Assembly (NCBI GenBank): GCA_016178055.1
Contig: JACOUC010000035.1
Location: 77,325-141,324 of the forward strand
Length of the DNA stretch: 64,000 nucleotides
Direction: 5' to 3'
From: Chlamydiota bacterium
GTDB lineage: Bacteria > Auribacterota > JACPWU01
The notes beneath the pieces are model-generated. The model saw nothing but the letters and a program-made list of their open reading frames with translations. It did not search any database and was not told the origin of the DNA. The translations under genes and the position numbers were made by a program. Each line of letters opens with the position of its first letter. The stretch's first letter is position 1. Positions 1 through 18,141 of this stretch are shown piece by piece.

Positions 1-117
1 AACAGTTATTGCCCGCTGTACACCCATTTCATGAAGACTTGCCTTTTCTTCTAAAATACCAGCGACATGACGCAATATTTGAGCCGTCTTAGAAACAACT
101 TTTTGGACTCTTTTCAT
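1..117 (-). CDS. Hypothetical protein, 5' part only (gene runs off the window start). The ATG at 117 overlaps the stop of the upstream gene as ATGA.
   Basis: Minus-strand frame is open from the ATG at 115-117 to position 1 and reads MKRVQKVVSKTAQILRHVAGILEEKASLHEMGVQRAITV. Start/stop overlap suggests translational coupling with 114..2024. Confidence 0.4.
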   Translation of the reverse strand, partial: MKRVQKVVSKTAQILRHVAGILEEKASLHEMGVQRAITV

Positions 118-2024
118 ACGAGCACTTCTTGATAAACCTTTCGAGAAGAGTCTTTAGATTCTAAAAACGCAGAAACCGTTTCTTCATTAAGAGGAGACAG
201 GCATTCTTCTCTCATTCTTTCTGACCATGCATTCAAGCGCTCTTGCTCCTCTTTTGAGAGAGATAATTTCTTGAGCACTTGCTCACGCAATTCCTCTACC
301 GAATATGCAGGTGGATCAAACTCTGAAAACCACTCCAGAGGATTCATATTAAAATCCGTTTCTCGCCCAACGGAAATGACAGGAGTTCCTGTAAGGGCAA
401 CCTCAAGGGCAGACGTCGATGCTGAAACGACCGCACATCTAACTTTATCTAACCATTCCTCCATGATGCCTTCTACAAAGACCATATGCCCGGGCAAAGC
501 AAATTCTCTGGACCAAGAAGTAAGACATTCTTTAGAAGTCATCGGATGTGGTTTAAGATAGAATATGATTCCTTCTTTTGCAGAGAAAGCCCTAACCAAT
601 TTATGAAGCAATTCATAAGACGCAATATCTTCCAAAGATAGGACAACCAACACCTTCCCATTCACATCAGTCCCATTAACCAAACCCCGAAAGAGATGTA
701 AATATCTCAAAGAAGGACCTACCCGAAGTTTATCTTGAGAGAAACCTTCTGACACCATCAGATTTCGTGTAAATAGAGAGTTGCAAACAATCACATCAGG
801 ATAGAACATGGCCCGATCTTCTCCAGATGAGCAAAACAGACAAAGCCAAAGGGGATAAGGTGCAAGATAATGCTGATAACCTACCTGTAACACATGGGGC
901 ATAAATTGGCGGAAAGCCAATGATGCAGGTTTTTCAGAAATCATATTTTCAAATGTATCAATAAATATATCGATCTTAATATCTTGAGCACGTAACTTTT
1001 TTATAAGGCGATAATGGAGAATAAACTGCGCAGAACTTCGATCAAGACATTGCTCCCGACAGGCCTCTCTAAAAAGGGCCCGCGTATCCATTCCATCAAA
1101 TATTTTATCTTTGAGAGGCAATGCCACCTGAGAAATAGCAATTCCCATAGCCCAGAGATAATCGCCAAGGGAATAAAAATCTTCAGGAATAATATATTCA
1201 TTTTTAAATTGCCTAAACCACTGAAACGCATCTTTACGAGATCGTTGAATGTTGGACAAGATCGGCAGATAAGCTACTTCATAACCTTTTTTACAAAGCT
1301 CTGTGGGGAGCATTCGAAAATAACGGTCTCGTTTAGAAAGATCAGACACAAAATGCGTTTCATCAACCCATGAACGAATCAAAACGCGGGGACGATCCGT
1401 GGACTCCTTCGTACGATCATTCACTTGGCGTGTCTTCCTTGCATCCCTTCTTGCCCTCATACCCTCCCATAAATAATCAAACCACGAAAGCCACATTTGA
1501 ATACTCCATTTGAGCCAGACCTTGAACCTACCTTCTCGCTTAATAACATAAACTTTATGAACAGCACTTAAAGACCTTTCGAGAGACTGTAAAACCGCTC
1601 GGCTCTCCACAACCATCAAGAGTGACTCAGTGGCATGATTTCCATAATCCTCTCCCATCTTCACATAACATATCTTATGATAAAGGGAATCTAACGCTGT
1701 ATTCTGCTCGGAAACACGCGAGCTTAAAAAGCGCAAGGTGGGATGAGATATTCTCAAACGACCTATCCAATCGAGAAATGGCCTTCTTAATTTCATTGCA
1801 ATATCTTGGAACACCTTTCCTGAATGAATTCTTTCCAATCCTCTTTGACTGAGCATTTCCTCCCAAAGACACATACGAAAATAATCACGCCCCAGATAAA
1901 GCCATTGAGAAGGTAGGTTCCGTTTTTGAATAGACAACGCCTTGAGCCTTTCCAGAGCACGTTCGAGTTTGAATCGAGCAGGGACGAGAAACACGACAGA
2001 AGATCTTAAAGGAGATGGCATCAA
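114..2024 (-). CDS. Large uncharacterised GT-B-like glycosyltransferase candidate with a K-x-HP motif (KpsC/KpsS/TagF-like?). Paralog of 6278..8416.
   Basis: 636-aa ORF. Its C-terminal 120 aa are about 70% identical to the 712-aa ORF, with shared GRETDFNM.PLEWFSEFDPP.YSVEEL. A conserved KPHPM motif is reminiscent of CMP-ulosonate or CDP-glycerol-dependent HP-motif transferases. Confidence 0.6.
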   Translation of the reverse strand: MMPSPLRSSVVFLVPARFKLERALERLKALSIQKRNLPSQWLYLGRDYFRMCLWEEMLSQRGLERIHSGKVFQDIAMKLRRPFLDWIGRLRISHPTLRFLSSRVSEQNTALDSLYHKICYVKMGEDYGNHATESLLMVVESRAVLQSLERSLSAVHKVYVIKREGRFKVWLKWSIQMWLSWFDYLWEGMRARRDARKTRQVNDRTKESTDRPRVLIRSWVDETHFVSDLSKRDRYFRMLPTELCKKGYEVAYLPILSNIQRSRKDAFQWFRQFKNEYIIPEDFYSLGDYLWAMGIAISQVALPLKDKIFDGMDTRALFREACREQCLDRSSAQFILHYRLIKKLRAQDIKIDIFIDTFENMISEKPASLAFRQFMPHVLQVGYQHYLAPYPLWLCLFCSSGEDRAMFYPDVIVCNSLFTRNLMVSEGFSQDKLRVGPSLRYLHLFRGLVNGTDVNGKVLVVLSLEDIASYELLHKLVRAFSAKEGIIFYLKPHPMTSKECLTSWSREFALPGHMVFVEGIMEEWLDKVRCAVVSASTSALEVALTGTPVISVGRETDFNMNPLEWFSEFDPPAYSVEELREQVLKKLSLSKEEQERLNAWSERMREECLSPLNEETVSAFLESKDSSRKVYQEVLV

Positions 2025-2025
2025 A

Positions 2026-2919
2026 TTATTTTTTCACCCGGCCAGAAACTCGCCATGCCTCAAAACGATGTTCTTGATTAGCAAAACGATCAGAGCCTAA
2101 ACTCCTTCTTGTCCCCATATCCGCATCATAATATTTAAAAAAGAGATCATCGCGATAGGAATGCCGATAGCTCGAGGCTAAGTTTTCAAGTTTCTTCCAA
2201 TGCTTTTCTAAATATTCCTCTGCAGCTCGATAAAAAGGGGTGCCGCGGTTGTCTTCAAATTTAACATCCGATAAACCCATCTTACGCCTCAGCACATTCA
2301 CAATAAACTCGTTCGTATGAATGAAATCGTATTGTGCATCATCAATCGCCACAACACTTCCATCCCCCAAGAGAAAGTCTACTGCGTTTAACTCCTTGAT
2401 AATGGTGTTCCAAACATGATCTCCATCGTGAAAGAAGCAATCGATATGGTCGACCATGCCCTTAAGAATGGGAAGTCCTAACTCGTTAGAAACACTATCG
2501 TAAGGGATCAAATGCCAGGAGGAACTCATCTCCTTATGGAACATCTGACCCAAAGTTTCTACACAAACTCCTCTGATTTGAGATGCCTTTTCAGGGTTCA
2601 AGTCCCATGTATAAACGTGTCCACCATGTTTAAGAGCACTATAGATAAAGACAATCGTACTGGCCCCTACTCCCGTTTCAGCAATCACAAGCTTTCGTCC
2701 CTTGAGTTTCGTTTCTTCCGCTAGCGTTTCTGTAATCTTAAACAAGGCTAAAAATTCGCAGTCAGGGATACCGTTTAACCATTTTGGAAGCAATCGCTTA
2801 ATTGAAATAAGGTATTCTGCCTCATTCTCAATGATTTTTTCCAAAGTCCCCATATAATAGTCATACATAAAACATCTCCTTATTTCTATCTTTGACCCTT
2901 CAACAGTTCTTCGTACCAA
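2026..2919 (-). CDS. Class I SAM-dependent methyltransferase (TylF/Methyltransf_24-like).
   Basis: ETGVGASTIVF glycine-rich SAM-binding motif. The probable start is at the MGTLEK Met. The 1-nt gap to the downstream gene indicates an operon. Confidence 0.7.
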   Translation of the reverse strand: MVRRTVEGSKIEIRRCFMYDYYMGTLEKIIENEAEYLISIKRLLPKWLNGIPDCEFLALFKITETLAEETKLKGRKLVIAETGVGASTIVFIYSALKHGGHVYTWDLNPEKASQIRGVCVETLGQMFHKEMSSSWHLIPYDSVSNELGLPILKGMVDHIDCFFHDGDHVWNTIIKELNAVDFLLGDGSVVAIDDAQYDFIHTNEFIVNVLRRKMGLSDVKFEDNRGTPFYRAAEEYLEKHWKKLENLASSYRHSYRDDLFFKYYDADMGTRRSLGSDRFANQEHRFEAWRVSGRVKK

Positions 2920-3725
2920 TGACGGGCCGTGTCAAATCCATCCCGTAATATGGCACAGTCGACACGATATGAAATGAATCGAAACCCCGACTCAAAAAGA
3001 AATTGCAAATAATTCTTATCCCAAGCAATTGAGCCGGCAACCCTTCTATGGGCCTCAATGAGCTTGACACATTCTTTCACAAGCTTCAGAACTTTAGGAT
3101 GAGTTAACTCTCCAGGGATACCTACCGCCTGAGAGATATCATAGAGCCCAAGATAAATGAGATCCAGACCCGGCACTTGTGCAATCTCCTCGAGATTCCT
3201 AATTCCCTCTTCTCCCTCGACAAGAATTCCTACAAACAACTGATCATTCGCATACCGAAGCTTTGGAGCTAACTCAATATCCGAATAGCCATGGTTACGC
3301 GTAAAGGGGGATAGCCCTCGATTACCCTCTGGAAAATATTTAGTTGCCTGAACAATCCTCAAAGCTTCTTGAGCAGTGGACACGTGGGAGACTAAAAGTG
3401 CCTTTACCCCAATCTCCAACGCATGAAGAATGGTCAATTCATTTCCTTCTCCAAGGCGGATAATCGGTGTACATCCCGAGGATTCAGTCGCATAGATTTG
3501 ACTCTCCGCAGTCTCAAAGGACATGGGACCATGCTCCATGTCGATAATCACAAAGTCTAGACCTGCATGGCCAATCGCATTCATGACAGATGGCGAGGCG
3601 AGCATAGACCAGGTTCCAAAGACCCGTCCCCCAGCTTTAAGCTTGGTCTTAATTTTGTTTTCTGTCACGATCGCCTGCCAACATTTCTTGTCTTCGACCG
3701 GCATAAGAAGGATAAAACTCATCAC
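2886..3725 (-). CDS. HpcH/HpaI-family class II pyruvate aldolase.
   Basis: GGRVFGTWSML...GLDFVIIDMEHGP...GNRGLSP motifs typical of HpcH/HpaI/GarL aldolases. The true start is probably internal, at MPVEDKK. Confidence 0.8.
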   Translation of the reverse strand: MMSFILLMPVEDKKCWQAIVTENKIKTKLKAGGRVFGTWSMLASPSVMNAIGHAGLDFVIIDMEHGPMSFETAESQIYATESSGCTPIIRLGEGNELTILHALEIGVKALLVSHVSTAQEALRIVQATKYFPEGNRGLSPFTRNHGYSDIELAPKLRYANDQLFVGILVEGEEGIRNLEEIAQVPGLDLIYLGLYDISQAVGIPGELTHPKVLKLVKECVKLIEAHRRVAGSIAWDKNYLQFLFESGFRFISYRVDCAILRDGFDTARHWYEELLKGQR

Positions 3726-4473
3726 GCCGCATTGCCCTTTCAGCTTCCTGTCTGTCTGGCTCTGTATCTACGGAAACACTCCGATAAGGGGACTTCGCTG
3801 TTCTGACCTTGATCCCATGCTCAACCGCCCGAAGCAATTCAATGGACTCGGCAATTTCGTAAGGGGTCGCAGACATTTCTTGAAAGTCTAGGAGAAACTT
3901 TTTCCTGAATGGCATGATGGCAACCTGTTTAAGGCGAGGCCCAATTCTATCCCGTATATTCGATGGAATCGAGCTGCGAGACATGAATAAAATATCTTCC
4001 CTCTCGTCCACGACAACCTTCACCTCGTTGGGGTCTAACCACTCCTTCTCATTGGCATCCGCTACCAATGTGAGAATCTGTACCTTGGGGTCGGCGAGGA
4101 GGGGAGCAATGGCTAGATCAATCATCCCTGGATGAATCAGAGGTTCATCCCCTTGAACCACAACCACGATGTCGTCATCAGCTAAATTTTGCTTTCTACA
4201 AGCCTCTGCCACACGCAGCGCAGGTCTAGAAATCTCCTGATGTGTCATGTATACCTTTCCCCCAAATCCTAGAACAGTCTGGCGAATTGCTTCATCACAG
4301 GCAGCGACAAACACATCGTCCACATGTTTCACAAGCAAGCACCGCTTGTAAACATGCTCGATCATGGATATTCCAAGAATTTTCGCCAACGGCTTTCCAG
4401 GAAATCGCGAGGAACCCATCCGAACAGGTATGCCAATCACTACTTTCACAGAGTTCCCATTCTTTTTAGACAT
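3649..4473 (-). CDS. CMP-3-deoxy-2-ulosonate cytidylyltransferase (KdsB/NeuA family).
   Basis: N-terminal IPVRMGSSRFPGKPL and VVVQGDEPL motifs characteristic of CMP-Kdo/CMP-NeuAc synthetases. Confidence 0.85.
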   Translation of the reverse strand: MSKKNGNSVKVVIGIPVRMGSSRFPGKPLAKILGISMIEHVYKRCLLVKHVDDVFVAACDEAIRQTVLGFGGKVYMTHQEISRPALRVAEACRKQNLADDDIVVVVQGDEPLIHPGMIDLAIAPLLADPKVQILTLVADANEKEWLDPNEVKVVVDEREDILFMSRSSIPSNIRDRIGPRLKQVAIMPFRKKFLLDFQEMSATPYEIAESIELLRAVEHGIKVRTAKSPYRSVSVDTEPDRQEAERAMRRDEFYPSYAGRRQEMLAGDRDRKQN

Positions 4474-5410
4474 TCTGCAATTTCCAGTCTTGCCTGACCC
4501 AACTGGCCATCTCTGCTAAACCCTCCTCTAATCTCACCGTGGGTTTCCAACCCAAATCCTCTTGAAGCAAAGATGAATCTCCATAGATTCCAAACTGGTC
4601 GCGACGTGTTGGATCACCTTGTATGATAGGGTAATTCTCTGAATGTCCAAAAACTTGAATGATCTCTTTCAATAAGTCCGATACATAGGTCTTGCGACCC
4701 GTCGAAACATTGTAAACCTTCCCATAAGCTCGCTCATTTCCCACACATCGAACAAAGGCATCCACAATATCTTTGATAAAGACAAAGTCTCGAAAACGCT
4801 CTTTCGAGCCGCGTACCAAGATGGGCTCCCCTCGAGCTACATAAGCCATATAAATGCTCACCATACCTTGCTTTAAATTATCCATATCCTGCATCGGTCC
4901 ATAGACATTAAAAAGACGCAAGCTTGTCGTGTTCACTCCAAAACCCTGATAGATCTGGCAAAGGTATTCGGAGGCAATTTTACCAACCGCATACGGTGAA
5001 GGAGGTCGAACGGGACTAGACTCTGTTACAGGAAGCATTGAAGGATCTCCATACACGTTCATCGAGCTGGCAAAGACAAACTGCTTGACCTGATGCTTCA
5101 AACACCATTGGAGAAGAAGCAATGTAGAAAAGGCATTGGCCTTAAGATCGAAGACAGGGCGCTCAAACGACAGCTCCTGTCCCACATGAGAAGCCAAATG
5201 AAAAACAACATCAACACCCTCTTTTGGAAGCTCTAGAGCTGTGTCCTCATCTGTAAGATCAAGCCACTTGAATACGACTCCGGTAGGAAGATTGCGAATA
5301 TAACCTGAAGATAGATTATCGACCGCTAGAACAGAGTGTCCGTCCTTTAACAAGCGACGACATAAATGAGAACCGATAAAACCTGCGCCCCCTGTGACAA
5401 TCACTCTCAT
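4466..5410 (-). CDS. NAD-dependent epimerase/dehydratase (extended SDR).
   Basis: MRVIVTGGAGFIGSHL Rossmann motif and a YxxxK region. Confidence 0.85.
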   Translation of the reverse strand: MRVIVTGGAGFIGSHLCRRLLKDGHSVLAVDNLSSGYIRNLPTGVVFKWLDLTDEDTALELPKEGVDVVFHLASHVGQELSFERPVFDLKANAFSTLLLLQWCLKHQVKQFVFASSMNVYGDPSMLPVTESSPVRPPSPYAVGKIASEYLCQIYQGFGVNTTSLRLFNVYGPMQDMDNLKQGMVSIYMAYVARGEPILVRGSKERFRDFVFIKDIVDAFVRCVGNERAYGKVYNVSTGRKTYVSDLLKEIIQVFGHSENYPIIQGDPTRRDQFGIYGDSSLLQEDLGWKPTVRLEEGLAEMASWVRQDWKLQNV

Positions 5411-6354
5411 CGTGAATCCTTTCGCCGAGATGGTCCAACCACATACTGGCCTTCAAGAGAATCCTCCATACCCGATCTACCCTTCACAAAAAACTGGTTC
5501 GTCAATTCTCCCAACCCCTCCACACGTGCCGTGTAGATATCCCCATGCTGGACAAAATGCATCCCCACCGTATCGGGCGGATTCCCTGTCAGAATAACAT
5601 CCCAAGGCTCAAGGGTGATCCAAGTCGAGAGCCAGGACACAATCTTAGGCCATTGCCAAACCTGTGCACTCGAACGAGCACGCCGAATGACCTCACCATT
5701 TTGAATCGCTTCAATCAGGCAGTCAGACGGGTCAAAATCTGTATCGATCCAAGGACCGATCGGACAGAATTGATCCGGACATTTTGATCGAGCGAGATGA
5801 TGGTCCCGATGATCCACGTTTTCTACGGTCACATCATTTCCAATGGTAAATCCTAAAATTCCTTCTCTCACCTGATTTTCTAAAATATTCTTGAGCGGTT
5901 TTTTAATCACGACTGCCAGTTCTGCTTCTCCCCACCAGGGAAGAGCTGGAAACGGGTTTATGACCGCTTCACCAGGACCGCACACACTTGTTGAGGATTT
6001 CAAAAAAACAAGAGGTTCGTTCATCATCGACGAATAGCCATCAATCCCTGGAAAATTGATCGCGATGGCTAAAATTTTATTGGGACGACACGGGGCAAGC
6101 AACGAAACCAAATCTAAAGTTCCAACTTTTTCCTTCCTTTCTACTTTGACAAGAGGATCTCCTGAAACCCGATAAACGTCAGAGCCTTCTACACATCCAT
6201 ACTCTGGATGACCCTCATTACTTTTGTATCGAACAAGTCTCAAATTTTTACTGTTAAAAAAACTCTTGGATTTTTTTTCATGCAAGTGCTTCTTGAAAAA
6301 TCTTTTGGGAGGAAGCCTCTTTAGGCTTGACAAATGCAGAGATTGTATCTTCAT
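5407..6354 (-). CDS. Fumarylacetoacetate hydrolase (FAH) family hydratase/isomerase (HpcG/HpaH-like).
   Basis: KILAIAINFPG, EAELAVVI, GFTIGNDVT and GDVILTGNP motifs. The first ~40 codons are probably not translated. A TTG at about 6235 would give MRLVRYKS.... Confidence 0.8.
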   Translation of the reverse strand: MKIQSLHLSSLKRLPPKRFFKKHLHEKKSKSFFNSKNLRLVRYKSNEGHPEYGCVEGSDVYRVSGDPLVKVERKEKVGTLDLVSLLAPCRPNKILAIAINFPGIDGYSSMMNEPLVFLKSSTSVCGPGEAVINPFPALPWWGEAELAVVIKKPLKNILENQVREGILGFTIGNDVTVENVDHRDHHLARSKCPDQFCPIGPWIDTDFDPSDCLIEAIQNGEVIRRARSSAQVWQWPKIVSWLSTWITLEPWDVILTGNPPDTVGMHFVQHGDIYTARVEGLGELTNQFFVKGRSGMEDSLEGQYVVGPSRRKDSR

Positions 6355-8416
6355 TGATGGTCGAAAGGCATTCTTTTTTCATCTCTTCGGCCCAAATCTT
6401 CAAACGTGTCCGTTCCTCTTCTGAGAAAGATAATTTCTTGAGCACTTGCTTACGCAATTCCTCCACTGAATAAACAGGCGGATCAAATTCCGAAAACCAT
6501 TCCAGAGGATCCATATTAAAATCTGTTTCACGCCCCACACGAACACACGGTACTGCAGCCAATGCAATTTCAAGAGAAGCGGTCGTAGAGGCAGCAATAA
6601 CAGCACACGCCGCTCGTGAGAGCCAATCAGAGATTGCCCCTCCTACACAAATCATGTGAGAAGGCAAAGTCTCCATTCCTAGCCCGCATTTCTCATCAGA
6701 TTTCGTCACGAGAGCGTCGAGTCCGCTTTGGATGCGAGGAAGACGACCGAGGCCATGCGAGGCATACTTTGCAGTATGTTGAGTGTGGCCGACCGAGTCT
6801 GCACGGAGAGACGAGGCGGAATCGGCGCTCGCAGTAGAAATGTGATGAGAAATGCGGGCTAACAGAGTGTGGAATCCCTTTTCCGACATCATCGGATGAC
6901 GTTTCACCCAAAATCGAATCCCCTCGTCTCGTGGGAAAGTGCTGACAAGCTTTAACAAAACTTCCAGGGTCGCCATTCTATCCAAAGATAGAACAACCAG
7001 CACGGTATTAGGCTCTGGAGCCTTTTTAGAATCCTTTGAGAAGAAGTGAAGATATCGAAAGGAGGGCCCTACCCGCAATTTACCTGAAGGAAAACCTGCC
7101 TTCTGCATCTGAGCAACCATGAATGGAGAATTACAAACAATCACATCTGGATGAGGAGAAATCGTGAGCTCTTTGGGCGTTGTGTATTTTGACATCATGA
7201 ACGGCTCCATTGCAATATAATGCTCAAACCCTACCGTCATTGTTTTGGGCATCCACTGTCGAAAGGCGATCACTTGAGGCTTTTCATTCAGCATGTTTTC
7301 AAACATATCGATAAAGATATCAATGGAGAAACCTTTCTTAGATAATTTCTTGATCAAACGATAATATAAAATGAACTTTACTCCTCCCTTATGGCAAGCC
7401 TGGTCACGACAAAATTCTCGAACAAGGGAAGAGATATTTAATCCCTCAAAGGAGTGTTTACCCAAGACCAACCAAGCCTGACGGATGACAACAGAGGCAG
7501 CCCAAACGTAATCGAAAATTGAATAAAAATCTTCAGGAATTAAATAGTGTCCTGGGTGGGCATGAAACCATTCGAAGGCACTTCGCAAAGATCTTTGAAT
7601 TTGCGAGAGCCATGGAATGACGAGCACCTCATAGCCGCGCTTCCTTAGGAGCTCCGCAAGCCCTGAAAAATAACGATCTTGAGGAATATTATTGCTAAAA
7701 TAGCTTTCGTCAATACACGTATGGATCACAACACGCTTCTGAAAACTTCCGCTTGATGAAGGGAAGCTCTCTCTCTCGCCTGCGTCACGTGCATCTTGTA
7801 GAACTTTCCGGGCATTTAAAAGAAACCGTATCCATATCCGGACCCAACGATAAAACCAACGGAATCTCGGAAGGTTTCCCTTTAAGGAACGATGAGGGCA
7901 AACACGTTTCCTCAATTCAGGAATATCGGCAAGGGCCCTCAACACAGAATCATGTTCGGCTACGATCAGAATAAGTGAAAAATCACTCTGGGTTTCGTCA
8001 AATGCAATGCGTAGATAGCACATCCGATGGAACAATGAATCAATCATGGTATCACGCTCTGCAATCTTGGAACTCCACCAGACAAAAGAATTATTTTTTT
8101 CTCCCAATTCGGCAATCCATTCCAAATAAGGTTGTTTCCAGCGTCTCGCAAGCCCTTGAAGTTTGGAGGCATAATTCACACGCTCAAAATTTTCACCTAG
8201 CAAGGACTCCCACGCTAGCATCCTCTCGTAATTTCTTCCTAAGTAAATCCACTTCTGTTTCAAGTCCGACGAAGAATGAATGATGCCCAACTTTTCTTTC
8301 AACTTTTTGCGTTGAAAATGGTCTAAATCCTCCGCCAAGAACAAATAAATTTTAGATTGCATAGGCCATGATCTCCCGCACAGGTTTTGCAAGTTCAAGT
8401 CCCGCAATCGCAGCAC
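6278..8416 (-). CDS. GT-B-like glycosyltransferase candidate with HP motif, paralog of 114..2024. It carries an in-frame 182-bp repeat-element insertion.
   Basis: 712-aa ORF. It shares GRETDFNMDPLEWFSEFDPP and the KRHPM motif with the 636-aa paralog. The extra ~61 aa (ARISHHISTASADSASSLRADSVGHTQHTAKYASHGLGRLPRIQSGLDALVTKSDEKCGL) are encoded by the element at 6680..6861. Confidence 0.7.
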   Translation of the reverse strand: MLRLRDLNLQNLCGRSWPMQSKIYLFLAEDLDHFQRKKLKEKLGIIHSSSDLKQKWIYLGRNYERMLAWESLLGENFERVNYASKLQGLARRWKQPYLEWIAELGEKNNSFVWWSSKIAERDTMIDSLFHRMCYLRIAFDETQSDFSLILIVAEHDSVLRALADIPELRKRVCPHRSLKGNLPRFRWFYRWVRIWIRFLLNARKVLQDARDAGERESFPSSSGSFQKRVVIHTCIDESYFSNNIPQDRYFSGLAELLRKRGYEVLVIPWLSQIQRSLRSAFEWFHAHPGHYLIPEDFYSIFDYVWAASVVIRQAWLVLGKHSFEGLNISSLVREFCRDQACHKGGVKFILYYRLIKKLSKKGFSIDIFIDMFENMLNEKPQVIAFRQWMPKTMTVGFEHYIAMEPFMMSKYTTPKELTISPHPDVIVCNSPFMVAQMQKAGFPSGKLRVGPSFRYLHFFSKDSKKAPEPNTVLVVLSLDRMATLEVLLKLVSTFPRDEGIRFWVKRHPMMSEKGFHTLLARISHHISTASADSASSLRADSVGHTQHTAKYASHGLGRLPRIQSGLDALVTKSDEKCGLGMETLPSHMICVGGAISDWLSRAACAVIAASTTASLEIALAAVPCVRVGRETDFNMDPLEWFSEFDPPVYSVEELRKQVLKKLSFSEEERTRLKIWAEEMKKECLSTINEDTISAFVKPKEASSQKIFQEALA
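6680..6861. mobile_element. MITE-like 182-bp element with 19-bp perfect terminal inverted repeats (TAGCCCGCATTTCTCATCA ... TGATGAGAAATGCGGGCTA), inserted in-frame in a coding gene.
   Basis: Terminal inverted repeats read directly at 6680-6698 and 6843-6861. The internal ~125 bp is about 90% identical to 45378..45520. The insert is read through in the host gene's frame. Confidence 0.6.
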
Positions 8417-9338
8417 GCCCCATTGCTAAAATCCCTTCTTCCGTGCTTCCTCCAATATGAGGAGTCGCAATAAAATTGGGTAGCCGTAACAACTCCGTAT
8501 CCGTAGGCGGTTCCATTCTAAAAACATCAAAAGCAGCTCCCGCCAAGCGTTCCTCTTTCAACATCATCTTCAGCGCCTCCTCATCTACAAGTCCTCCCCT
8601 AGAAGTATTGATAAGAATGGCCGTAGATTTCATAAGAGAAAGTCGCTTTTTATCTAGAATATTTTGCGTCGTTTCAGTCAAAGGAAGATGAAGTGAAACG
8701 ACATCGGATTGCGTCAAAAGTTTTTCGAGGGAAACATACTGCACTCCAAATTGATGAATAAGATGTGCATCCTCTCGTAAATCATGGCACAAAATCCGGC
8801 ACTGAAAGGGTTGAAGAAGCTCTATCAAATCCTTTCCCACATAACCACATCCCACAACACCGATGGTACGACCTGTGAGGTATTGTCCTTTCCTCTGCTG
8901 CCATTTTCCAGAACGTACCTCTTGATGAAGAAGAGCAAGATGCCTTAACAGAACTAACGTAAAGCCTAGAACGAGTTCCGAAACAGATCTCCGATTAACG
9001 CCCGGAGTCCATGAAAGTTCGATTTTGTGTCGCGAAAGCGCCTCAAGATCCAGCCTATCTAATCCCACCCCAAACTTCGAGATCACCTTGAGATCTGGCA
9101 AAAAGGAAAGAATCTCTTCTTTCAACACCTCCAGCGCTATAATGGCCTTTACCTGCCCTTTCAAAAAAGACACGAGGGCGTCACCGGAAAGGGAAATTCC
9201 CCCATCATTGAAACGCACATGAGAATACTTCTCAGACAGTTCAGCCCTTAAAATCGGATGTTTTGAAAAAGACCGCGAAGTGACCGCAATCGGTGATGGA
9301 TCTTTCATTGACGCACTCGATGAAAATACTCGGAACAA
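8352..9338 (-). CDS. D-isomer-specific 2-hydroxyacid dehydrogenase (NAD-binding).
   Basis: GVVGCGYVGKDL Rossmann motif, INTSRGGLVDEEAL, the catalytic FDVFRMEPP region and ATPHIGGST. Confidence 0.85.
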   Translation of the reverse strand: MFRVFSSSASMKDPSPIAVTSRSFSKHPILRAELSEKYSHVRFNDGGISLSGDALVSFLKGQVKAIIALEVLKEEILSFLPDLKVISKFGVGLDRLDLEALSRHKIELSWTPGVNRRSVSELVLGFTLVLLRHLALLHQEVRSGKWQQRKGQYLTGRTIGVVGCGYVGKDLIELLQPFQCRILCHDLREDAHLIHQFGVQYVSLEKLLTQSDVVSLHLPLTETTQNILDKKRLSLMKSTAILINTSRGGLVDEEALKMMLKEERLAGAAFDVFRMEPPTDTELLRLPNFIATPHIGGSTEEGILAMGRAAIAGLELAKPVREIMAYAI

Positions 9339-10387
9339 ATGTCGTGAAAACGCTCATCGTTAGATACACCCTTCTTAACGATGCATGCTACGGCATCTGG
9401 CAAGATGAGCGTCAAATGAGAATTTGTATTTTTCTTATCTTTCCCCAAGGCATCCAGAAAAGGATTGAATGGAATATCTATATTCTCATACCCTTGATAA
9501 TTCATTTTTAAAATAGGGTGCACACGATCAAAATGTTCCTGCTTCATATTCCCCAACTGGACAGAGACAAAGTTGGCCATATCCATTCCCATGCTAACAG
9601 CAATTCCGTGTGGAATCGCGAAGTCTGTAGCTGATTCAATGGCATGGCCAAAGCTATGTCCATAATTCATAATGTTGCGAATTCCCTGATCAAATTCATC
9701 TACTTCAATGATGCGTTGCTTAATCTTTAAAGATTGATAGATGTTTTTTTCCAAAAGGGCACGATCCTTTAAAAGAAAAGGATAATCCGCTGCAATTTGA
9801 TCAAAGGTGCGGGGACCCTCAATCAGAGAAACCTTAAGCATCTCGCCAATTCCAGATCGTAAATCGCGTTCATCCAGAGAATCAAGGAATCGAAGGCTCA
9901 CCACAATCTTACGCGGAGGGGTAAAAGTCCCAACAATGTTTTTAATCTTACCGACATTAATAGAGCTCTTAGATCCAATGCAGGAATCAGCCTGAGCCAA
10001 AAGTGTTGTAGGGAAAAAATACCAATCGAGGCCCCGCAAGAGAACGGCTGCGAGAAAGCATGTGATATCTTGGATAATACCCCCACCTATGGCAATCAAC
10101 AAATGTCCGCGCCGAATGTTTTGTCTCACAAGATGTTCAATATAATCACAAAATTGATCCAGTGATTTATTCATCTCCGTTGCGGGTATGAGCAGGATCG
10201 AAGGGGATTTTAAAATATGATTTAATTCTTGCGCATACAGACTCGCAACCTTTTCATCCACGATAAAGTGTGTGGAACTTGAAATGAGATCGTTTAAAAA
10301 TGAAAAGGGATCGTCTTTGAAATGAACCGTATAAGGCCCTCGATGAGACTGGATGGTGATGGGCTCAAACACGTGTAAATCCACCAT
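9305..10387 (-). CDS. 3-dehydroquinate synthase family sugar-phosphate cyclase (DHQS-like).
   Basis: IAIGGGIIQDITCFLAAVLLRGLDWYFFPTTLLAQADSCIGSKSSINVGKIKNIVGTFTPP matches the DHQS glycine/Lys-rich core. A metal-binding HxxxH-type region (NYGHSFGHAIES) is present. Confidence 0.8.
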   Translation of the reverse strand: MVDLHVFEPITIQSHRGPYTVHFKDDPFSFLNDLISSSTHFIVDEKVASLYAQELNHILKSPSILLIPATEMNKSLDQFCDYIEHLVRQNIRRGHLLIAIGGGIIQDITCFLAAVLLRGLDWYFFPTTLLAQADSCIGSKSSINVGKIKNIVGTFTPPRKIVVSLRFLDSLDERDLRSGIGEMLKVSLIEGPRTFDQIAADYPFLLKDRALLEKNIYQSLKIKQRIIEVDEFDQGIRNIMNYGHSFGHAIESATDFAIPHGIAVSMGMDMANFVSVQLGNMKQEHFDRVHPILKMNYQGYENIDIPFNPFLDALGKDKKNTNSHLTLILPDAVACIVKKGVSNDERFHDICSEYFHRVRQ

Positions 10388-11084
10388 CGATCACAATATT
10401 TTGACCACTGATGTAGGTATTTTCACGACTCACCAACCAGGCGACAAGTTTCGCAACCTCTTCTGGTTTTCCCAATCGTTTCATCGGAACTCGGGATACG
10501 ATGTCCCTCATCTCACCCTCATCTAAAACTGAGCGCGTAAGCTCTGTATCAATAAAGCCAGGCGAGACGCAATTGGCAAGGATTCCTTCCTGAGCTACCT
10601 CAGCCGCAAGGGCCGCCGTCATCCCATCCAGGGCAAACTTGCTGGCAGAATAAGACGCTCGAAACTCCTTGCTGACAATTCCAAAAATAGAGCTCATATT
10701 GACAATACGACCCCACTTTTTCTTTCGCATGTAAGGAATAACTGCACGGCATAAAAGAAACGGGGCATGTAAATTGACTGACTGAATCTGATTAAAGTCT
10801 GTCCTGTCAATCTTTTCAAAAGAGCTGATTCGATTCATTCCTGCATTGTTGACTAAAATATCGATCGTGAGTTTTGAAATTTCTTTTTCAAAATTTTGAA
10901 ATGAAATATCGTCAGAAAAATCAACGGCGCGATAGGTACATCCTGACGGAACATCCACATTTAATTTTCTCCCTGTGAAGAAAACGCTTACCCCGGCTGA
11001 ACATAATTCATCTACAATGGCTCGCCCAATACCACGTGTCCCCCCTGTAACAAGGGCCGTCAAACCTTGGAGAGAATTTTGCAC
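10365..11084 (-). CDS. SDR family oxidoreductase (FabG-like).
   Basis: TALVTGGTRGIGRAI, NNAGM and YSASK motifs. Confidence 0.85.
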   Translation of the reverse strand: MQNSLQGLTALVTGGTRGIGRAIVDELCSAGVSVFFTGRKLNVDVPSGCTYRAVDFSDDISFQNFEKEISKLTIDILVNNAGMNRISSFEKIDRTDFNQIQSVNLHAPFLLCRAVIPYMRKKKWGRIVNMSSIFGIVSKEFRASYSASKFALDGMTAALAAEVAQEGILANCVSPGFIDTELTRSVLDEGEMRDIVSRVPMKRLGKPEEVAKLVAWLVSRENTYISGQNIVIDGGFTRV

Positions 11085-12133
11085 ACGAACTCCTCTGAAA
11101 TGGTATCACTCAATTGATAACGCTCCTTCCATTTAGAATCTGCACAATAAATTCGATAGACCAAATGCATGGTTTTTAAAGCTTCGAGCGACGATCCGTG
11201 AATGATCGGTTTATCGTAAAGAATGGCATCTGCAAATTCGAAAATTTCATTTTTCCAGGAATGATCTTGATTGTAGCGCGTCGTCTGTTCACGAGGATCT
11301 CCACCATCGTTCTCAGTCGCATAGACCACCGTCATTGTCTCCGCACCGTAACTCTTAGAACCTGACAAAAGACCTGACAAAATAATCGCACCCTGCGAAA
11401 GCGTGATTTCCAGACTAAAGCGATGACGCCACTGGGTTGCTGATGAATGAAGAAAAGCAACAATACCATCTTCAGTCCGCATCAAGGCATAGGCATTATC
11501 CTCTACATCATGCTTCCAATGGTCATTCGATACAAAACTATAAACATCCTTAAACTCACCTGCAAAAAGGCGCATCATATCAACCATATGAATCCCCTGG
11601 TCTAGTAAAATTCCCCCTCCAGCCATGGAACGCTTGGTACGCCAATCTGAGTCGAAGCGGATAATCTTAGACTTCCCATAAACCCCCCTCATGTTCATCA
11701 CCTTACCCAATTCGCCAGACCGAACAATACCTAAGGCATCATGGACAGAATCGTGATAACGATGATTGAATCCATACTTTAATTTACATTGGGGATGCTG
11801 ACGTTCACACTGGATCACACGAACAACATCATTTAAATCTCGACCCGGTGGCTTCTCGCAAAAGACATGAAGCCCTCTTTCCAATCCTGCCATCGTGACC
11901 TCTGGTGCAACATCATTGGTCATACAAACAAAAAGGGCATCCAAATCCTCCCCCACTAATTGATGATAATTGTTAAAACAACGCACGCCATCTTGAGAAA
12001 CTCCATCCCCGCTGAAAGTCCGATCACAAACAGCTACCGTTTCTAAATGGGGGTGTTGATCAATAAATTCCCTACGGCGCTTCCCTACAACGCCATAGCC
12101 TGCAATTCCAACTTTGAGCTTTCCTTGCTTCAT
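11060..12133 (-). CDS. Gfo/Idh/MocA family sugar oxidoreductase.
   Basis: KVGIAGYGVVGKRR Rossmann motif and the EKPPG motif. Confidence 0.85.
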   Translation of the reverse strand: MKQGKLKVGIAGYGVVGKRRREFIDQHPHLETVAVCDRTFSGDGVSQDGVRCFNNYHQLVGEDLDALFVCMTNDVAPEVTMAGLERGLHVFCEKPPGRDLNDVVRVIQCERQHPQCKLKYGFNHRYHDSVHDALGIVRSGELGKVMNMRGVYGKSKIIRFDSDWRTKRSMAGGGILLDQGIHMVDMMRLFAGEFKDVYSFVSNDHWKHDVEDNAYALMRTEDGIVAFLHSSATQWRHRFSLEITLSQGAIILSGLLSGSKSYGAETMTVVYATENDGGDPREQTTRYNQDHSWKNEIFEFADAILYDKPIIHGSSLEALKTMHLVYRIYCADSKWKERYQLSDTISEEFVCKILSKV

Positions 12134-12912
12134 AAAACAGCGGATCCTAGATATCGAGGGAGAAGCAGGTCCTCGGATATGAGTTTTTCAACACGGGCAA
12201 GATCTTCAGGCGTATCGACTCCGATAGAAACACCCTCTACAAGAACCATCCTTACAGAATCTCCATATTCGAGGACACGCAACATATCCACCGACTCGAT
12301 CATTTCTAAAGGAGAAGGAGAAAGTGACACATATTTTGCAAGGTAGCTACGACGAAAGGCAATGAGTCCAAGCTGTTTAAACATCGGAATAGATCGATTC
12401 CATTTTTTTCTGGAAGGGATCCGTTCACGGGAAAAATAAAGAGCATTTTGATTTAAGCCCACAACCAACTTCACTACATTGGGGCTACTGAAATCCTCTT
12501 CATTGGTAATGGCCGCCATTAAATTGACAACATTCAGTGTTGACTCCTCCTTGAGAGGAGTCATAGCCCGTTCCAGCAACTCAGGCTGCAATAACGGCTC
12601 ATCCCCTTGAATCATCATGACCCTATCAATCGACTGTCCAGAAAGGGCTTCAATTTTTTCAACAGCTTCCGCCGTTCGTTCGCTTGCACGTTCGTGCTTG
12701 TAAGAGGTCATGACACAAGGAGCCCCAATCGATACTGCATAATCCTGAATCGCCTTATCACAGGTCGCAATAAAAACCCCTTCTAAAAGCGAGCAGAGCT
12801 TGCTTCGAAAATAAACATGACCAATCATAGGAAGGCCTAGAATTTTTGCTAGGGGTTTTCCAGGAAAGCGTGTGGAAGCCATGCGGGCAGGAATAACACC
12901 GATGATTTTCAT
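12130..12912 (-). CDS. CMP-3-deoxy-2-ulosonate cytidylyltransferase (KdsB/NeuA family), second copy.
   Basis: MKIIGVIPARMASTRFPGKPLAKILGLPMI and MMIQGDEPL motifs. Confidence 0.85.
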   Translation of the reverse strand: MKIIGVIPARMASTRFPGKPLAKILGLPMIGHVYFRSKLCSLLEGVFIATCDKAIQDYAVSIGAPCVMTSYKHERASERTAEAVEKIEALSGQSIDRVMMIQGDEPLLQPELLERAMTPLKEESTLNVVNLMAAITNEEDFSSPNVVKLVVGLNQNALYFSRERIPSRKKWNRSIPMFKQLGLIAFRRSYLAKYVSLSPSPLEMIESVDMLRVLEYGDSVRMVLVEGVSIGVDTPEDLARVEKLISEDLLLPRYLGSAVL

Positions 12913-12954
12913 GATCAGAAAATTCCTAAAGAATTGAAACCCATTCGCGCATTT

Positions 12955-13830
12955 TTACATGCGTGTAAAAATAATATTTGACATTGATTCTCGTATTAAA
13001 TGCCTTGATTTAATTCCAAAACCAGCCCCTTCAAGAAATTGCACAAGTCTCTGTCCCTTTGACAAACCCTCGTTTATCTCAACCAACAAGCTTTTAACTT
13101 CTGGGTTCGAAAGGGTCTCCTTACCGCCTTCTAAGATTTCTAATTCATGACCGTCCACATCCAATTTAATATAATTGGGAATTGGAAGCAAAAACTCTTG
13201 AATAAGATCGTCCAACCTAAATCCCATCAATTTCTGATGCCAAAAAGGGATAAATGGTTTTCCATTTTCATCAACACATTCCCCCAAGCTGTGCAAAGCC
13301 CCCCCTGGCTCAATCCCTTCTAGAGAACTATAATTAAATGCCTCTAATCTTGTCTTATTTGAGAGGGCAATTTGCAAGGGCGTAATGCTATCTGAACACT
13401 GATTAAGATAAATATTCTTGCAGAGCTGAGAGAAGGATGAAAACCCTGGCTCAAACGAAAAAATCTTTCCATCCCCCCCCATTGACTTCGCTGCAATCAG
13501 TGAATACACACCCACATTAGCTCCAATGTCGTAAAAGACCTCTCTTCCTCCTATAAATGTTTCTATCCAATGTACTGTCTCTGGCTCTTTTTTACATGAG
13601 TGTAATCGAGTAAAAAATTCATAACCAGATTCAATATCAAGATATATATCCCGTCGGGGGTAATCCATCTTCTGAACAATTTTAAATTTCCCCTTTATCG
13701 AAACAGCCGTCCTTGGACTCACCTGACACAGCATCCGAGTCATCCAAGCCCCGGTGTTTTCCACAACCTTTCTATAATGAAAGACGAACTTTTTAAAAAT
13801 GTTTTTTACGAATTTCCTAAGAAAAGTCAT
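12955..13830 (-). CDS. FkbM family methyltransferase.
   Basis: FYDIGANVGVYSL...FSFEP, the typical FkbM SAM-binding region. Confidence 0.8.
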   Translation of the reverse strand: MTFLRKFVKNIFKKFVFHYRKVVENTGAWMTRMLCQVSPRTAVSIKGKFKIVQKMDYPRRDIYLDIESGYEFFTRLHSCKKEPETVHWIETFIGGREVFYDIGANVGVYSLIAAKSMGGDGKIFSFEPGFSSFSQLCKNIYLNQCSDSITPLQIALSNKTRLEAFNYSSLEGIEPGGALHSLGECVDENGKPFIPFWHQKLMGFRLDDLIQEFLLPIPNYIKLDVDGHELEILEGGKETLSNPEVKSLLVEINEGLSKGQRLVQFLEGAGFGIKSRHLIRESMSNIIFTRM

Positions 13831-13837
13831 GCGATTT

Positions 13838-14632
13838 TTAGGTTATTTTCTTCTTCATAAACGCAAGTCCACTCCGACATGTCACATCCAACATTCGAAT
13901 ATCCAAACTATAGGCAAGAAAATGAAAGCCTTCTTTGACACGCCTCTTAAGCTCTTTGGGGTCGGGTTCAATGATATGAATACCTCCCGGTTTTTTCATC
14001 TTGGCAGCTACTTGTTTTATTCTTCTAAGAGCCCTTAATACCTTTGGATGAGTAAACTGTCCTGGAACCCCAAGCGAACCGGAAAGATCATAAGGTCCAA
14101 TCATGTAACCGTTAACCCCAGGAACAGAAAAAATCTCTTCAAGATTTTCAACTGCATCAATATGTTCAATTTGGACAATAACAATTGCCTCATTTTGCAA
14201 CCACTTTAAATAGTCCTGAAAGCGTGTACCATAGCCCTGTGCACGGGCAAGTCCTACCCCACGTCGCCCCCTAACTGGATAATGTACCGCGCAGACAGCA
14301 GCTTCAGCTTGTTCTCTAGAATTGACCATCGGTACAATGACGCCGTGCGCCCCAGCATCCATCACACGCTTAATTTGGTTCGGATCATTCGAAGTCAATC
14401 GAACCAAAGGCGTCACACCGCAAAGACCTATCACACGAATCAATTCCTCTGCCTCTCGAATGGTAATCACACTGTGCTCTAAATCCACGGCAAGCCAATC
14501 AAACCCTGCTTTTGCCATAATCTCAGCAATTCCAGTATGAGCAAGGGTGATCCAAGAGCCAATAGTAAGCTGGTTTGAAAACAATTTCTGTTTTAAGGAT
14601 TTTTTTTTGGAACCTATTTTTGTTTTACTCAT
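13838..14632 (-). CDS. HpcH/HpaI-family class II pyruvate aldolase, second copy.
   Basis: IGSWITLAHTGIAEIMAKAGFDWLAVDLEHS...VRL...GAHGVIVPMV motifs. Confidence 0.8.
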   Translation of the reverse strand: MSKTKIGSKKKSLKQKLFSNQLTIGSWITLAHTGIAEIMAKAGFDWLAVDLEHSVITIREAEELIRVIGLCGVTPLVRLTSNDPNQIKRVMDAGAHGVIVPMVNSREQAEAAVCAVHYPVRGRRGVGLARAQGYGTRFQDYLKWLQNEAIVIVQIEHIDAVENLEEIFSVPGVNGYMIGPYDLSGSLGVPGQFTHPKVLRALRRIKQVAAKMKKPGGIHIIEPDPKELKRRVKEGFHFLAYSLDIRMLDVTCRSGLAFMKKKIT

Positions 14633-17390: not shown

Positions 17391-18141
17391 CGTCTACAAC
17401 CAGACAAGCCCCTGTTATAAAGGAAGCTCTTTCAGATGCCAGAAATGTAACTGCATCGGCAATTTCTTCGGCTCTACCGAAACGTTGCAAGGGAACTTCT
17501 GTGTTGATATATTGCTCAAAAAAATCTTTTCGTTCGGCGAGCTTGGCCTCCCAAGTCCCACCCGGAAACAGGATATTTCCAGGAGAAACGGCATTCACAC
17601 GCACTCCCTGAGAGCCTACCATGCGAGATAAATTTTTCATTGCACTGTGAAGGGCCGCCTTTGCTGCACTGTAGGGAATAGGGGCAGGAATAGCTTCATT
17701 TCCAGCAATAGAGCTGATGAAAATTAAATTACCACGGCTTTGAATTAAATGGGGAAGGGCAGATTTTGCAAACGCCATTCCCCCTAACAAATTTACATTC
17801 AACATCTGTTGCCACTCGTCCCTAGATAAATCCCAACCACTTTTACCTACGCCGCTTCCTATATTTGCAATAGCAATATCAATTCTTCCAAATTTTTCAC
17901 ACGTATTTTGAAGAACACGATGAATCTCTGCCTCGAGGGTCATATCTGCACAAAAGGAAGCAACACGATGAGAACGTCCCTTTTTCACGAGGAACGACTC
18001 CGCATTTTTTACATTTTTTTCATCGCGGCCAGTCAGAATGACTTGAGCTTCTTCTTCTAAAAATGCCTCTGCAATAGCAAGCCCAATTCCGCGGCTGGAC
18101 CCTGCAATCAATACAACTTTATTTTTTAATCCAAGATCCAT
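17368..18141 (-). CDS. SDR family oxidoreductase.
   Basis: VLIAGSSRGIGLAIA, NIGSG and YSAAKAAL motifs. Confidence 0.85.
   Translation of the reverse strand: MDLGLKNKVVLIAGSSRGIGLAIAEAFLEEEAQVILTGRDEKNVKNAESFLVKKGRSHRVASFCADMTLEAEIHRVLQNTCEKFGRIDIAIANIGSGVGKSGWDLSRDEWQQMLNVNLLGGMAFAKSALPHLIQSRGNLIFISSIAGNEAIPAPIPYSAAKAALHSAMKNLSRMVGSQGVRVNAVSPGNILFPGGTWEAKLAERKDFFEQYINTEVPLQRFGRAEEIADAVTFLASERASFITGACLVVDGGQTRVI

Follow-up and report, generated by a model that had tools for sequence, protein, structure and literature searches.

Aldolase and cytidylyltransferase gene pairs in a bacterial glycan locus suggest an aldolase-dependent pathway to CMP-activated ulosonic-type acids

Can a bacterium make a keto-acid sugar activated with cytidine monophosphate (CMP) by means of a pyruvate aldolase? 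To our knowledge, every established route to CMP-keto-acid sugars (3-deoxy-D-manno-octulosonic acid (Kdo), sialic acid, pseudaminic acid, legionaminic acid and Kdn) uses a phosphoenolpyruvate (PEP)-dependent synthase. The question is raised by a stretch of 64,000 nucleotides from a Chlamydiota bacterium (assembly GCA_016178055.1, contig JACOUC010000035.1, positions 77,325 to 141,324 of the forward strand), hereafter the window, in which an original prediction made from the sequence alone had picked out two genes for HpcH/HpaI-type aldolases, each associated with a gene for a KdsB-type cytidylyltransferase. The open reading frames (ORFs) that it named are present at the coordinates used here. 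All large ORFs in the window lie on the minus strand, including every gene of the two cassettes described below, the G+C content is ∼0.42, and the window is a very large glycan locus. The explanation that we favour, with moderate confidence, is that the window encodes two branches of a widespread, uncharacterised pathway in which an aldolase is used to build CMP-activated ulosonic-type acids destined for a surface glycan.

The first step in answering the question is to ask what the aldolases are. Aldolase A (2886..3725) and aldolase B (13838..14632) match the HpcH/HpaI family PF03328 at 1.8e-28 (99.7 bits) and 2.5e-34 (118.9 bits) respectively, where the curated cutoff is 25 bits. Their matches in NCBIfam, which has no model specific to them, are limited to the HpaI, GarL and RhmA equivalog models, with scores of 119–193 bits that stay far short of the cutoffs (369–441), and the solved structures closest to them are those of HpaI, YfaU and GarL (aldolase B against HpaI, 2v5j, 1.2e-41). 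In alignments with E. coli HpaI, the residues D42, E44, H45, R70, E149 and D175, the metal ligands and catalytic residues of that enzyme, do not vary among 120 homologues of the aldolase A type and 120 of the aldolase B type. Because the catalytic residues are invariant and the model scores lie below the equivalog cutoffs, aldolases A and B, which are 30% identical to each other, are predicted to be competent class II pyruvate aldolases belonging to two new subfamilies. They share fold, family, and metal-binding and catalytic residues with the catabolic enzymes HpaI/HpcH, GarL and RhmA (YfaU), and differ from them in two substitutions relative to HpaI that are common to both clades (A174Y and P71L), in a context of glycan biosynthesis rather than of aromatic or sugar-acid catabolism, and in the presumed synthetic direction of the reaction. 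The assignment of both ORFs to the HpcH/HpaI family by the original prediction is upheld by the PF03328 matches and the invariant residues. Identity as a PEP mutase, a citrate lyase or a malyl-CoA lyase, the first two of which had been named as grounds for abandoning the idea, is ruled out by the intact catalytic residues and by NCBIfam and Protein Data Bank (PDB) matches that all fall in the HpaI group.

Aldolase A has 446 homologues, the best of them 60–77% identical, and aldolase B has thousands, the best at ∼70%; a protein identical to aldolase B is on record as "2,4-dihydroxyhept-2-ene-1,7-dioic acid aldolase". The homologues of aldolase A are ∼261–272 residues in length, and its translation probably begins at 3704 or at some position downstream of it. 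No fusion of an aldolase to a cytidylyltransferase was found in 131 loci, a 529-residue ORF of that appearance in locus L046 being a shadow-frame artefact.

The second step concerns the activating enzymes. Cytidylyltransferase A (3649..4473; PF02348 CTP_transf_3, 2.7e-42) and cytidylyltransferase B (12130..12912; PF02348, 8.6e-45) are 38% identical and are of the KdsB type, as had been proposed, in that they fall within NCBIfam KdsB subfamilies and keep the catalytic residues. Cytidylyltransferase B exceeds the cutoffs of TIGR00466 (179.9 against 155.2), NF009905 (288.5 against 255) and NF003952 (272.7 against 193); of these, cytidylyltransferase A exceeds that of NF003952 only (229.1 against 193), and is below the cutoff of TIGR00466 (142.2 against 155.2). 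The PseF model gives the cassette cytidylyltransferases 43 bits only. Residues R10, R15, K19, Q96, D98, E99 and D225, in KpsU numbering, are kept in 67 B-type and 7 A-type orthologues, and the replacements D51C, S75R, N94M/V, H172Q, Y176I/M and Q202M/L are common to both clades; the replaced positions are those invariant in three solved KdsB enzymes, chosen by that invariance rather than by contact with Kdo.

These results bear directly on a different explanation, namely that the KdsB-like enzymes are extra CMP-Kdo synthetases, comparable to E. coli KpsU, serving a Kdo-containing O-antigen or capsule. Kdo would then come from the housekeeping KdsA pathway, and the aldolases would serve another purpose: synthesis of an acid substituent that is not a sugar, salvage of free ulosonic acid, or epimerisation at C4 through retro-aldol and aldol reactions. 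The passing of TIGR00466 and NF009905 by cytidylyltransferase B is what such an enzyme would be expected to show, its matches to KpsU (4.3e-41) and to other solved KdsB enzymes (∼1e-41 to 1e-39) point the same way, and the source of the DNA is recorded as a Chlamydiae metagenome-assembled genome, Chlamydiae being a group with Kdo-rich lipopolysaccharide (LPS). We nevertheless regard the explanation as unlikely, given that D51C, S75R, H172Q, Y176I/M and Q202M/L alter, in both clades, positions that the three solved KdsB enzymes hold invariant, and given two properties of the related loci that are described next.

To what extent is the pairing conserved? A scan with aldolase B, taking one genome per species, yielded 80 loci at 57–72% identity from more than 12 phyla. 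The groups represented are Gamma- and Betaproteobacteria (including Nitrosomonas europaea ATCC 25978 and N. eutropha), Desulfobacterota, Nitrospirota, Bacteroidia, Elusimicrobia, Planctomycetes, Chloroflexota, Nealsonbacteria of the candidate phyla radiation (CPR), Omnitrophota, Bdellovibrionota and Leptospirales. The six-frame ORFs of all loci were searched with the window proteins, and a full-flank subset was defined of 52 loci with at least 6 kb on each side. In 45 of 83 aldolase-B loci a KdsB-like gene directly adjoins the aldolase gene in the same orientation, and in 22 more there is one within 6 kb. Co-location of the two genes is far beyond chance and recurs in 67 of the 83 related loci across many phyla. 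The co-occurrence in other taxa that the original prediction had proposed as a check is thereby confirmed, and no PEP-dependent synthase emerged as a conserved partner when all ORFs within 7 kb were clustered, a NeuB-like match being present in 16 of the 52 full-flank loci. The cassettes, that of the window included, often lie beside NeuB clusters. Among the KdsB-paired loci are some from lineages that are monoderm or belong to the CPR (L043, Peptococcaceae; L066, Dehalococcoidales; L070, Nealsonbacteria), and the keeping of the aldolase pairing in these lineages without LPS is the first of the two properties that speak against a supply of CMP-Kdo.

The second is that a phosphate-removing enzyme is encoded within the cassettes themselves, which is what would be expected of a self-contained pathway. 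Both the cytidylyltransferase and a 2-hydroxyacid dehydrogenase resembling phosphoglycerate dehydrogenase (PGDH) are found in 46 of the 52 full-flank loci, and 43 contain exactly one phosphate-removing enzyme. In 22 of them this is a haloacid dehalogenase (HAD)-type phosphatase, in 14 it is AroB-like and in 7 it is an inositol monophosphatase (IMPase)-family phosphatase; no locus carries two together. The conserved core is therefore an aldolase, a cytidylyltransferase, a PGDH-like dehydrogenase and exactly one phosphate-removing enzyme. Exclusivity of the HAD and AroB-like genes in these loci is significant (Fisher p = 9e-5); an apparent co-occurrence of the two in 5 loci in a first clustering was a shadow-ORF artefact, and the clean phmmer count is zero. 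The AroB-like gene is always accompanied by that for a FabG-like short-chain dehydrogenase/reductase (SDR), SDR1 (14 of 14 loci). A Gfo/Idh/MocA oxidoreductase (GFO) and a sugar isomerase (SIS) accompany the AroB-like and IMPase variants, and GFO orthologues score 300–570 bits in the AroB-like ('L') and IMPase ('I') variants and in the cassettes of aldolase A. These cassette layouts are matched by the Pfam records of independent contigs. That 43 of 52 loci carry exactly one of the HAD, AroB-like and IMPase enzymes leads us to infer that the intermediate of the pathway is phosphorylated.

In the window, the genes from 8352 to 14632 constitute the 'L' variant without its SIS gene: the PGDH-like D-2-hydroxyacid dehydrogenase HADH (8352..9338; Pfam 2-Hacid_dh_C, 9.7e-57), the AroB-like enzyme (9305..10387), SDR1 (10365..11084; Pfam adh_short_C2, 2.6e-51), GFO (11060..12133; identified by Pfam), cytidylyltransferase B, an FkbM-family methyltransferase (12955..13830; Pfam and TIGR01444) and aldolase B. 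A SIS gene elsewhere in the window (54212-54865) was considered as the missing member and rejected, matching the cassette SIS at only 57 bits. The original prediction had correctly recognised the aldolase–cytidylyltransferase pairs, and its gene set was incomplete, having missed the constant PGDH-like dehydrogenase, the AroB-like enzyme, the GFO, the SDR and the GT-B-fold glycosyltransferase candidates discussed below. It had also described the members of each pair as adjacent. This is so for pair A, whose genes overlap or abut, but in pair B the FkbM gene lies between cytidylyltransferase B and aldolase B, an insertion that is also seen in L029, L031, L036, L072 and L074.

Four of the aldolase-B loci (L047, L051, L067 and L078, from Desulfobacteraceae, Ca. 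Desulfaltia, Desulfatitalea and Chloroflexota) have the aldolase, the dehydrogenase and the HAD gene, and no KdsB-like gene within 10 kb. Three of these four carry a PF04199 'cyclase' gene. Either another nucleotidyltransferase is used in these loci or the product is not activated with CMP.

What might a phosphorylated intermediate be? The AroB-like protein, a putative sugar-phosphate phospholyase, exceeds the cutoff of TIGR04425 (481.8 against 400) and falls short of that of the aroB equivalog (283 against 305). Its nearest solved relatives are true 3-dehydroquinate synthases (DHQS), to which it aligns over its full length, and by eye it keeps the DHQS motifs DSxIGxK, GxxExxK, RNxxNxGHSxGHAIE, HG and DKK. 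These are the motifs for zinc, NAD and substrate, and include the residues that bind the phosphate and carboxylate of DAHP (the 7-phosphate of 3-deoxy-D-arabino-heptulosonate) in the A. nidulans enzyme. Because these motifs are kept, the sequence suggests that the substrate is a DAHP-like 2-keto-3-deoxy acid phosphate, and the reaction of a pyruvate aldolase with an aldose phosphate would give exactly this type of compound. The enzyme is unlike 3-dehydroquinate synthase and other sugar phosphate cyclases in scoring below the aroB cutoff, and in belonging to a glycan cassette, where it occupies the same position as the phosphatases. Since the AroB-like enzyme and the SDR take the place of the IMPase, the 'L' variant is suggested to make a deoxy or cyclised analogue of the product of the 'I' variant. 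A caveat to this reading of the substrate is that some sedoheptulose 7-phosphate cyclases also look DHQS-like (PMC5133447).

The AroB-like enzyme could alternatively carry out the full DHQS-type cyclisation on what the aldolase makes, with the KdsB-like enzyme then cytidylylating the tertiary alpha-hydroxy acid of a quinate-like carbocycle; in a related option, a cyclitol ketone and pyruvate would give a bicyclic acid, and either way the product would be a CMP-activated carba- or bicyclic ulosonic acid. That the protein is nearest to true 3-dehydroquinate synthases and almost at the aroB cutoff is in keeping with this, as is the NCBI family name, which includes "cyclizing". Likewise, GFO is distantly IolG-like, and in 7 loci IMPase-family phosphatases stand in place of the AroB-like enzyme and SDR. 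However, the S and I variants have aldolases and cytidylyltransferases that are very similar despite having no AroB-like enzyme, a carbocyclic CMP ester would be without the ring oxygen needed for ordinary glycosyl transfer, and we know of no carbocyclic or bicyclic ulosonic constituent of a glycan. We therefore consider this explanation quite unlikely.

The constant dehydrogenase raises a further possibility. The nearest solved relatives of HADH are phosphoglycerate dehydrogenases, and such a dehydrogenase occurs in the loci as regularly as the cytidylyltransferase does (each in 46 of 52). The aldolase, dehydrogenase and phosphatase could form a self-contained route from 3-phosphoglycerate and pyruvate. 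3-Phosphoglycerate would pass through phosphohydroxypyruvate to hydroxypyruvate or tartronate semialdehyde, and the aldolase would act either as GarL in reverse or with hydroxypyruvate as donor, giving a 3-deoxy-hexulosaric acid or a 3-hydroxylated 2-ulosonic acid that is then activated with CMP. Consistent with this, the aldolases also match GarL models, and the short variant, which is found in SAR86 and Ca. Pseudothioglobus, both streamlined marine lineages, would need central metabolites only. The invariant arginine gained by the cytidylyltransferases (S75R) could bind a second acid group, but this role is speculative, and the route leaves the AroB-like, GFO and SIS members of the cassettes unexplained. 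In this specific form we think it very unlikely, and it is in any case a variant of the explanation that we favour rather than a true alternative to it.

We now turn to the second cassette, that of aldolase A. The gene for aldolase A is flanked by that for a methyltransferase (2026..2919; Methyltransf_24, Pfam 1.5e-08), likely to be a tailoring enzyme of this cassette, and cytidylyltransferase A is followed, at higher coordinates, by EpiA, an extended-SDR epimerase/dehydratase (4466..5410; Pfam Epimerase, 3.9e-55), and by a protein of the fumarylacetoacetate hydrolase (FAH) family (5407..6354; PF01557 FAA_hydrolase, 8.9e-39, with an Rv2993c_N domain). The FAH gene had been described as lying next to pair A; it is parted from the pair by the EpiA gene. 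It had also been taken to encode a hydratase, forming with the aldolase a hydratase–aldolase couple re-used from aromatic meta-cleavage pathways. Identity as an HpcG/MhpD-type hydratase is unsupported: the nearest relatives in NCBIfam and the PDB are HpcE/HpaG isomerase-decarboxylases, mycobacterial Rv2993c-like proteins, Cg1458-type proteins (4dbf), L-2,4-diketo-3-deoxyrhamnonate hydrolase and FAHD1. The protein may act as a decarboxylase, tautomerase or diketo-acid hydrolase, to judge from these relatives, and the proposal of a re-used couple is likewise unsupported, since the types represented are isomerase, decarboxylase and diketone hydrolase. Homologues of the FAH protein are ∼259 residues in length, and the start of the ORF is probably placed too far upstream. 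The nearest solved relatives of EpiA are UDP-glucose 4-epimerases and UDP-xylose synthases, and its orthologues are present in aldolase-A cassettes and also in some aldolase-B cassettes.

A metagenome scan with aldolase A found close orthologues in 4 of 41 loci. An FAH gene is upstream of every close orthologue that has upstream sequence, and all those with both flanks covered have the order FAH, (methyltransferase), (epimerase), cytidylyltransferase, aldolase, GFO, SIS. The methyltransferases of the related cassettes L088–L090 belong to Pfam families other than Methyltransf_24. In L090 and L092 this order is extended by an SDR, an AroB-like enzyme, a dehydrogenase and a GT-B protein of ∼600 residues, such that L092 reproduces the window gene set in a single cassette. 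Because L092 does so, the two aldolase–cytidylyltransferase pairs of the window appear to share one GFO–SDR–AroB-like–dehydrogenase set. More distant HpcH proteins, 36–46% identical to aldolase A, sometimes adjoin KdsB-like genes (L100, L102, L103, L105 and L110).

Which protein would use the CMP-activated acid? Three large proteins encoded beside the two pairs are candidates. GTA2 (114..2024; 636 residues) and GTA1 (6278..8416; 712 residues) share 42% identity and are paralogous members of a family distantly resembling TIGR04326, to which each gives a weak match. GTA2 has no Pfam match, and its AlphaFold2 model (pLDDT 92.6) has a GT-B fold according to fold searches. A K-x-H-P motif is invariant in 50 GTA2 homologues, with A-S-S/T downstream. 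The third protein, of the LIC12162 family (14640..16529; 629 residues; weak match to TIGR04331, with PF27859 assigned to an identical gene in L001), has YHPVD followed by PSTT. In sialyltransferases the residue that protonates the phosphate is the histidine of a His-Pro motif, and beta-Kdo transferases conserve it (PMC9587256); members of the LIC12162 and TIGR04326 families are encoded beside neuABC in Herbaspirillum (PMC6679464). Orthologues of GTA2 lie on the same contigs as orthologues of aldolase A, and those of GTA1 follow the dehydrogenase gene in L034, L057 and L092. An 815-residue homologue of GTA2, P0296, has a HAD_2 phosphatase domain fused to the GT-B family domain, and this fusion links the phosphatase step of the cassette to the candidate transferase. 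A profile of the GT-B family finds only marginal matches among PDB sequences (GT28, 7e-4; KpsC, 0.34). On the strength of the model, the motif and the neighbourhoods, we infer the donor and put forward GTA1, GTA2 and the LIC12162-family protein as candidate transferases of the CMP-activated acid.

Taken in the order in which the steps would follow one another, the proposed pathway begins with a metal-dependent HpcH/HpaI aldolase, which would add the enolate of pyruvate, or of a 3-substituted pyruvate, to an aldehyde, replacing the PEP-dependent synthase of the KdsA or NeuB type. The intermediate would probably be phosphorylated, and its phosphate would be lost in this locus through the AroB-like protein, acting as an NAD-dependent phospholyase, together with the FabG-like reductase, and in other genomes through a HAD or IMPase-type phosphatase. 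The KdsB-type enzyme would add CMP, pulling the reversible aldol reaction forward, and the large His-Pro-motif GT-B proteins (TIGR04326-like and LIC12162-like) would transfer the sugar. The PGDH-like dehydrogenase and GFO would supply or tailor a substrate, and branch A would add the FAH-family enzyme, the epimerase/dehydratase and the methyltransferase. Our favoured guess at the sugar, made with low confidence, is a C7 acid of the 3-deoxy-heptulosonate type formed from pyruvate and a tetrose 4-phosphate, which would be 7-deoxy or carbocyclic where the AroB-like enzyme acts. We hold only tentatively, as a little short of probable, the more specific proposal that an aldolase-built CMP-ulosonic pathway exists in more than 12 phyla in three forms, of which the AroB-like form gives terminal-deoxy or carbocyclic acids, together with a new family of HP-motif GT-B transferases.

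Compared with the CMP-Kdo pathway (KdsD, KdsA, KdsC and KdsB), the proposed pathway would likewise make a keto-acid sugar, remove phosphate and add CMP; the activator is of the KdsB family with its catalytic arginine, lysine and aspartate residues conserved, and related cassettes contain a SIS isomerase and a HAD phosphatase. It is unlike that pathway in that the cassettes are without KdsA, the carbon–carbon bond being formed by a class II aldolase acting on pyruvate and not PEP; in that the cassette HAD is, by Pfam, of the HAD_2 type, KdsC being of a different HAD subtype; in the replacement of positions invariant in solved KdsB enzymes; and in the extra presence of a constant PGDH-like dehydrogenase, a GFO and an AroB-like enzyme. 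With the NeuB/PseI/LegI and NeuA/PseF/LegF pathways it would share a CMP-activated alpha-keto acid sugar destined for surface glycans, as well as the frequent proximity to NeuB clusters, and it differs from these nonulosonic acid pathways in having an aldolase rather than the PEP-dependent NeuB and an activator of the KdsB type rather than the NeuA/PseF/LegF type. A precedent for the chemistry is the one-pot synthesis that combines an aldolase, a CMP-sialic acid synthetase and a sialyltransferase, in which a reversible pyruvate aldolase is pulled by CTP activation and transfer. That is an artificial mixture with the class I aldolase NanA, whereas here the genes appear to be combined in nature, in a conserved operon whose aldolase is of class II. 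In the literature library searched, no paper connects an HpcH-type aldolase with cytidylyltransferases or with glycan synthesis, and the cassette is apparently undescribed, as CMP-ulosonic acid biosynthesis with a different synthase logic.

Several observations weigh against the aldolase-dependent pathway. HpcH aldolases are familiar as catabolic enzymes, and synthesis is not favoured by the aldol equilibrium alone. No KdsB-like gene is seen in 15 of the 83 aldolase-B loci, several of which are truncated and ∼8 of which have long flanks, and cytidylyltransferase B, in passing the NCBI KdsB cutoffs, may be no more than a CMP-Kdo synthetase. The pathway as we propose it does not account for the constant PGDH-like dehydrogenase. 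The product of a full DHQS-type reaction would be a carbocycle rather than a sugar, and as such ill suited to glycosyl transfer. That the HAD, IMPase and AroB-like genes exclude one another could be due to the separate inheritance of three types of cassette and not to equivalence of function, the loci not being phylogenetically independent. Finally, fold searches with the GT-B proteins return generic GT-B matches only, with the closest domain from an enzyme using a CMP-sugar (WaaA) at rank 39.

The remainder of the window provides the setting of the two cassettes. Among the window ORFs scanned with Pfam (all those of at least 150 residues, plus one of 103), there is no member of the KdsA/DAHP-synthase family. 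The window also contains transport genes (ABC-2, 50005-50859; ABC ATPase, 45582-46940), many SDRs and methyltransferases, two B12-binding radical-SAM enzymes, thiamine diphosphate (ThDP) enzymes, an HldE-like gene and NeuB (21027-21965). The gene adjoining NeuB encodes the third cytidylyltransferase (20277-21020, minus strand; PF02348, 3e-30), a distant relative of A and B that is likely to be the partner of NeuB, which argues against the suggestion, made alongside the original prediction as a way in which it could fail, that the cytidylyltransferases act only on the NeuB product.

Next to NeuB and this divergent cytidylyltransferase is one of the B12-binding radical-SAM enzymes (21027-23845 region), and the second lies 9 kb off (32685-34748). 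If these enzymes C-methylated a nonulosonic acid, this would be in line with the CMP-activated ulosonic acids of more than 9 carbons reported in Magnetospirillum in a 2026 preprint (10.64898/2026.04.20.719630). The 103-residue ORF (19969-20280), between a class IV aminotransferase gene and the NeuB-linked cytidylyltransferase gene, matches HAD/PNKP phosphatases weakly (2e-4); it may encode a small phosphatase that acts in the nonulosonic acid branch.

Other observations concern the locus as a whole. The ThDP enzymes comprise an acetolactate-synthase-like protein (28259-30133) and a split E1 alpha/beta pair (38943-40746); together with a xylose-isomerase-like TIM-barrel protein (18141-18983), GFO and a PfkB domain (42258-43841) they recall IolD/IolE/IolG/IolC-like inositol-catabolic or YerE-like branched-sugar chemistry. 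A 210-residue protein with a NusG N-terminal domain (57829-58461) is encoded directly upstream, in the sense of transcription, of the minus-strand glycan array, and may be a specialised RfaH/LoaP-like antiterminator of the ∼55-kb locus. Two paralogous YhcG/DUF1016 PDDEXK-nuclease genes inside the glycan locus (26924-27979 and 37074-38108) may mark the junctions of acquired blocks. A 171-residue ORF at 38425-38940 is the N-terminal half only of an NAD-dependent epimerase/dehydratase, probably a truncated gene or pseudogene. At 54862-55789, genes for a HepT-like ribonuclease and for a nucleotidyltransferase of the Pol-beta type make up a HepT/MNT toxin–antitoxin pair beside the GmhA-like SIS gene, and an 801-residue SNF2-family helicase gene (50891-53296), unusual in a polysaccharide locus, lies between the ABC-2 permease gene and the remaining window.

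The idea is directly testable in cultured carriers of the cassette, which include Nitrosomonas europaea, N. eutropha, Bacteriovorax and Hydrosulfovibrio, and the enzymes could serve in the chemoenzymatic synthesis of ulosonic-acid analogues. If it is true, proteins now annotated as "2,4-dihydroxyhept-2-ene-1,7-dioic acid aldolase" or "3-deoxy-manno-octulosonate cytidylyltransferase" would be re-assigned, and functions would be gained for the TIGR04425, TIGR04326 and LIC12162 families, whose members are at present 'hypothetical' or mis-named. The aldolase route would then be a second biosynthetic logic for CMP-activated keto-acid sugars, novel acidic sugars would be predicted on many environmental bacteria, including those of lineages free of LPS, and terminal-deoxy or carbocyclic ulosonic acids would constitute a new class of bacterial surface sugars.

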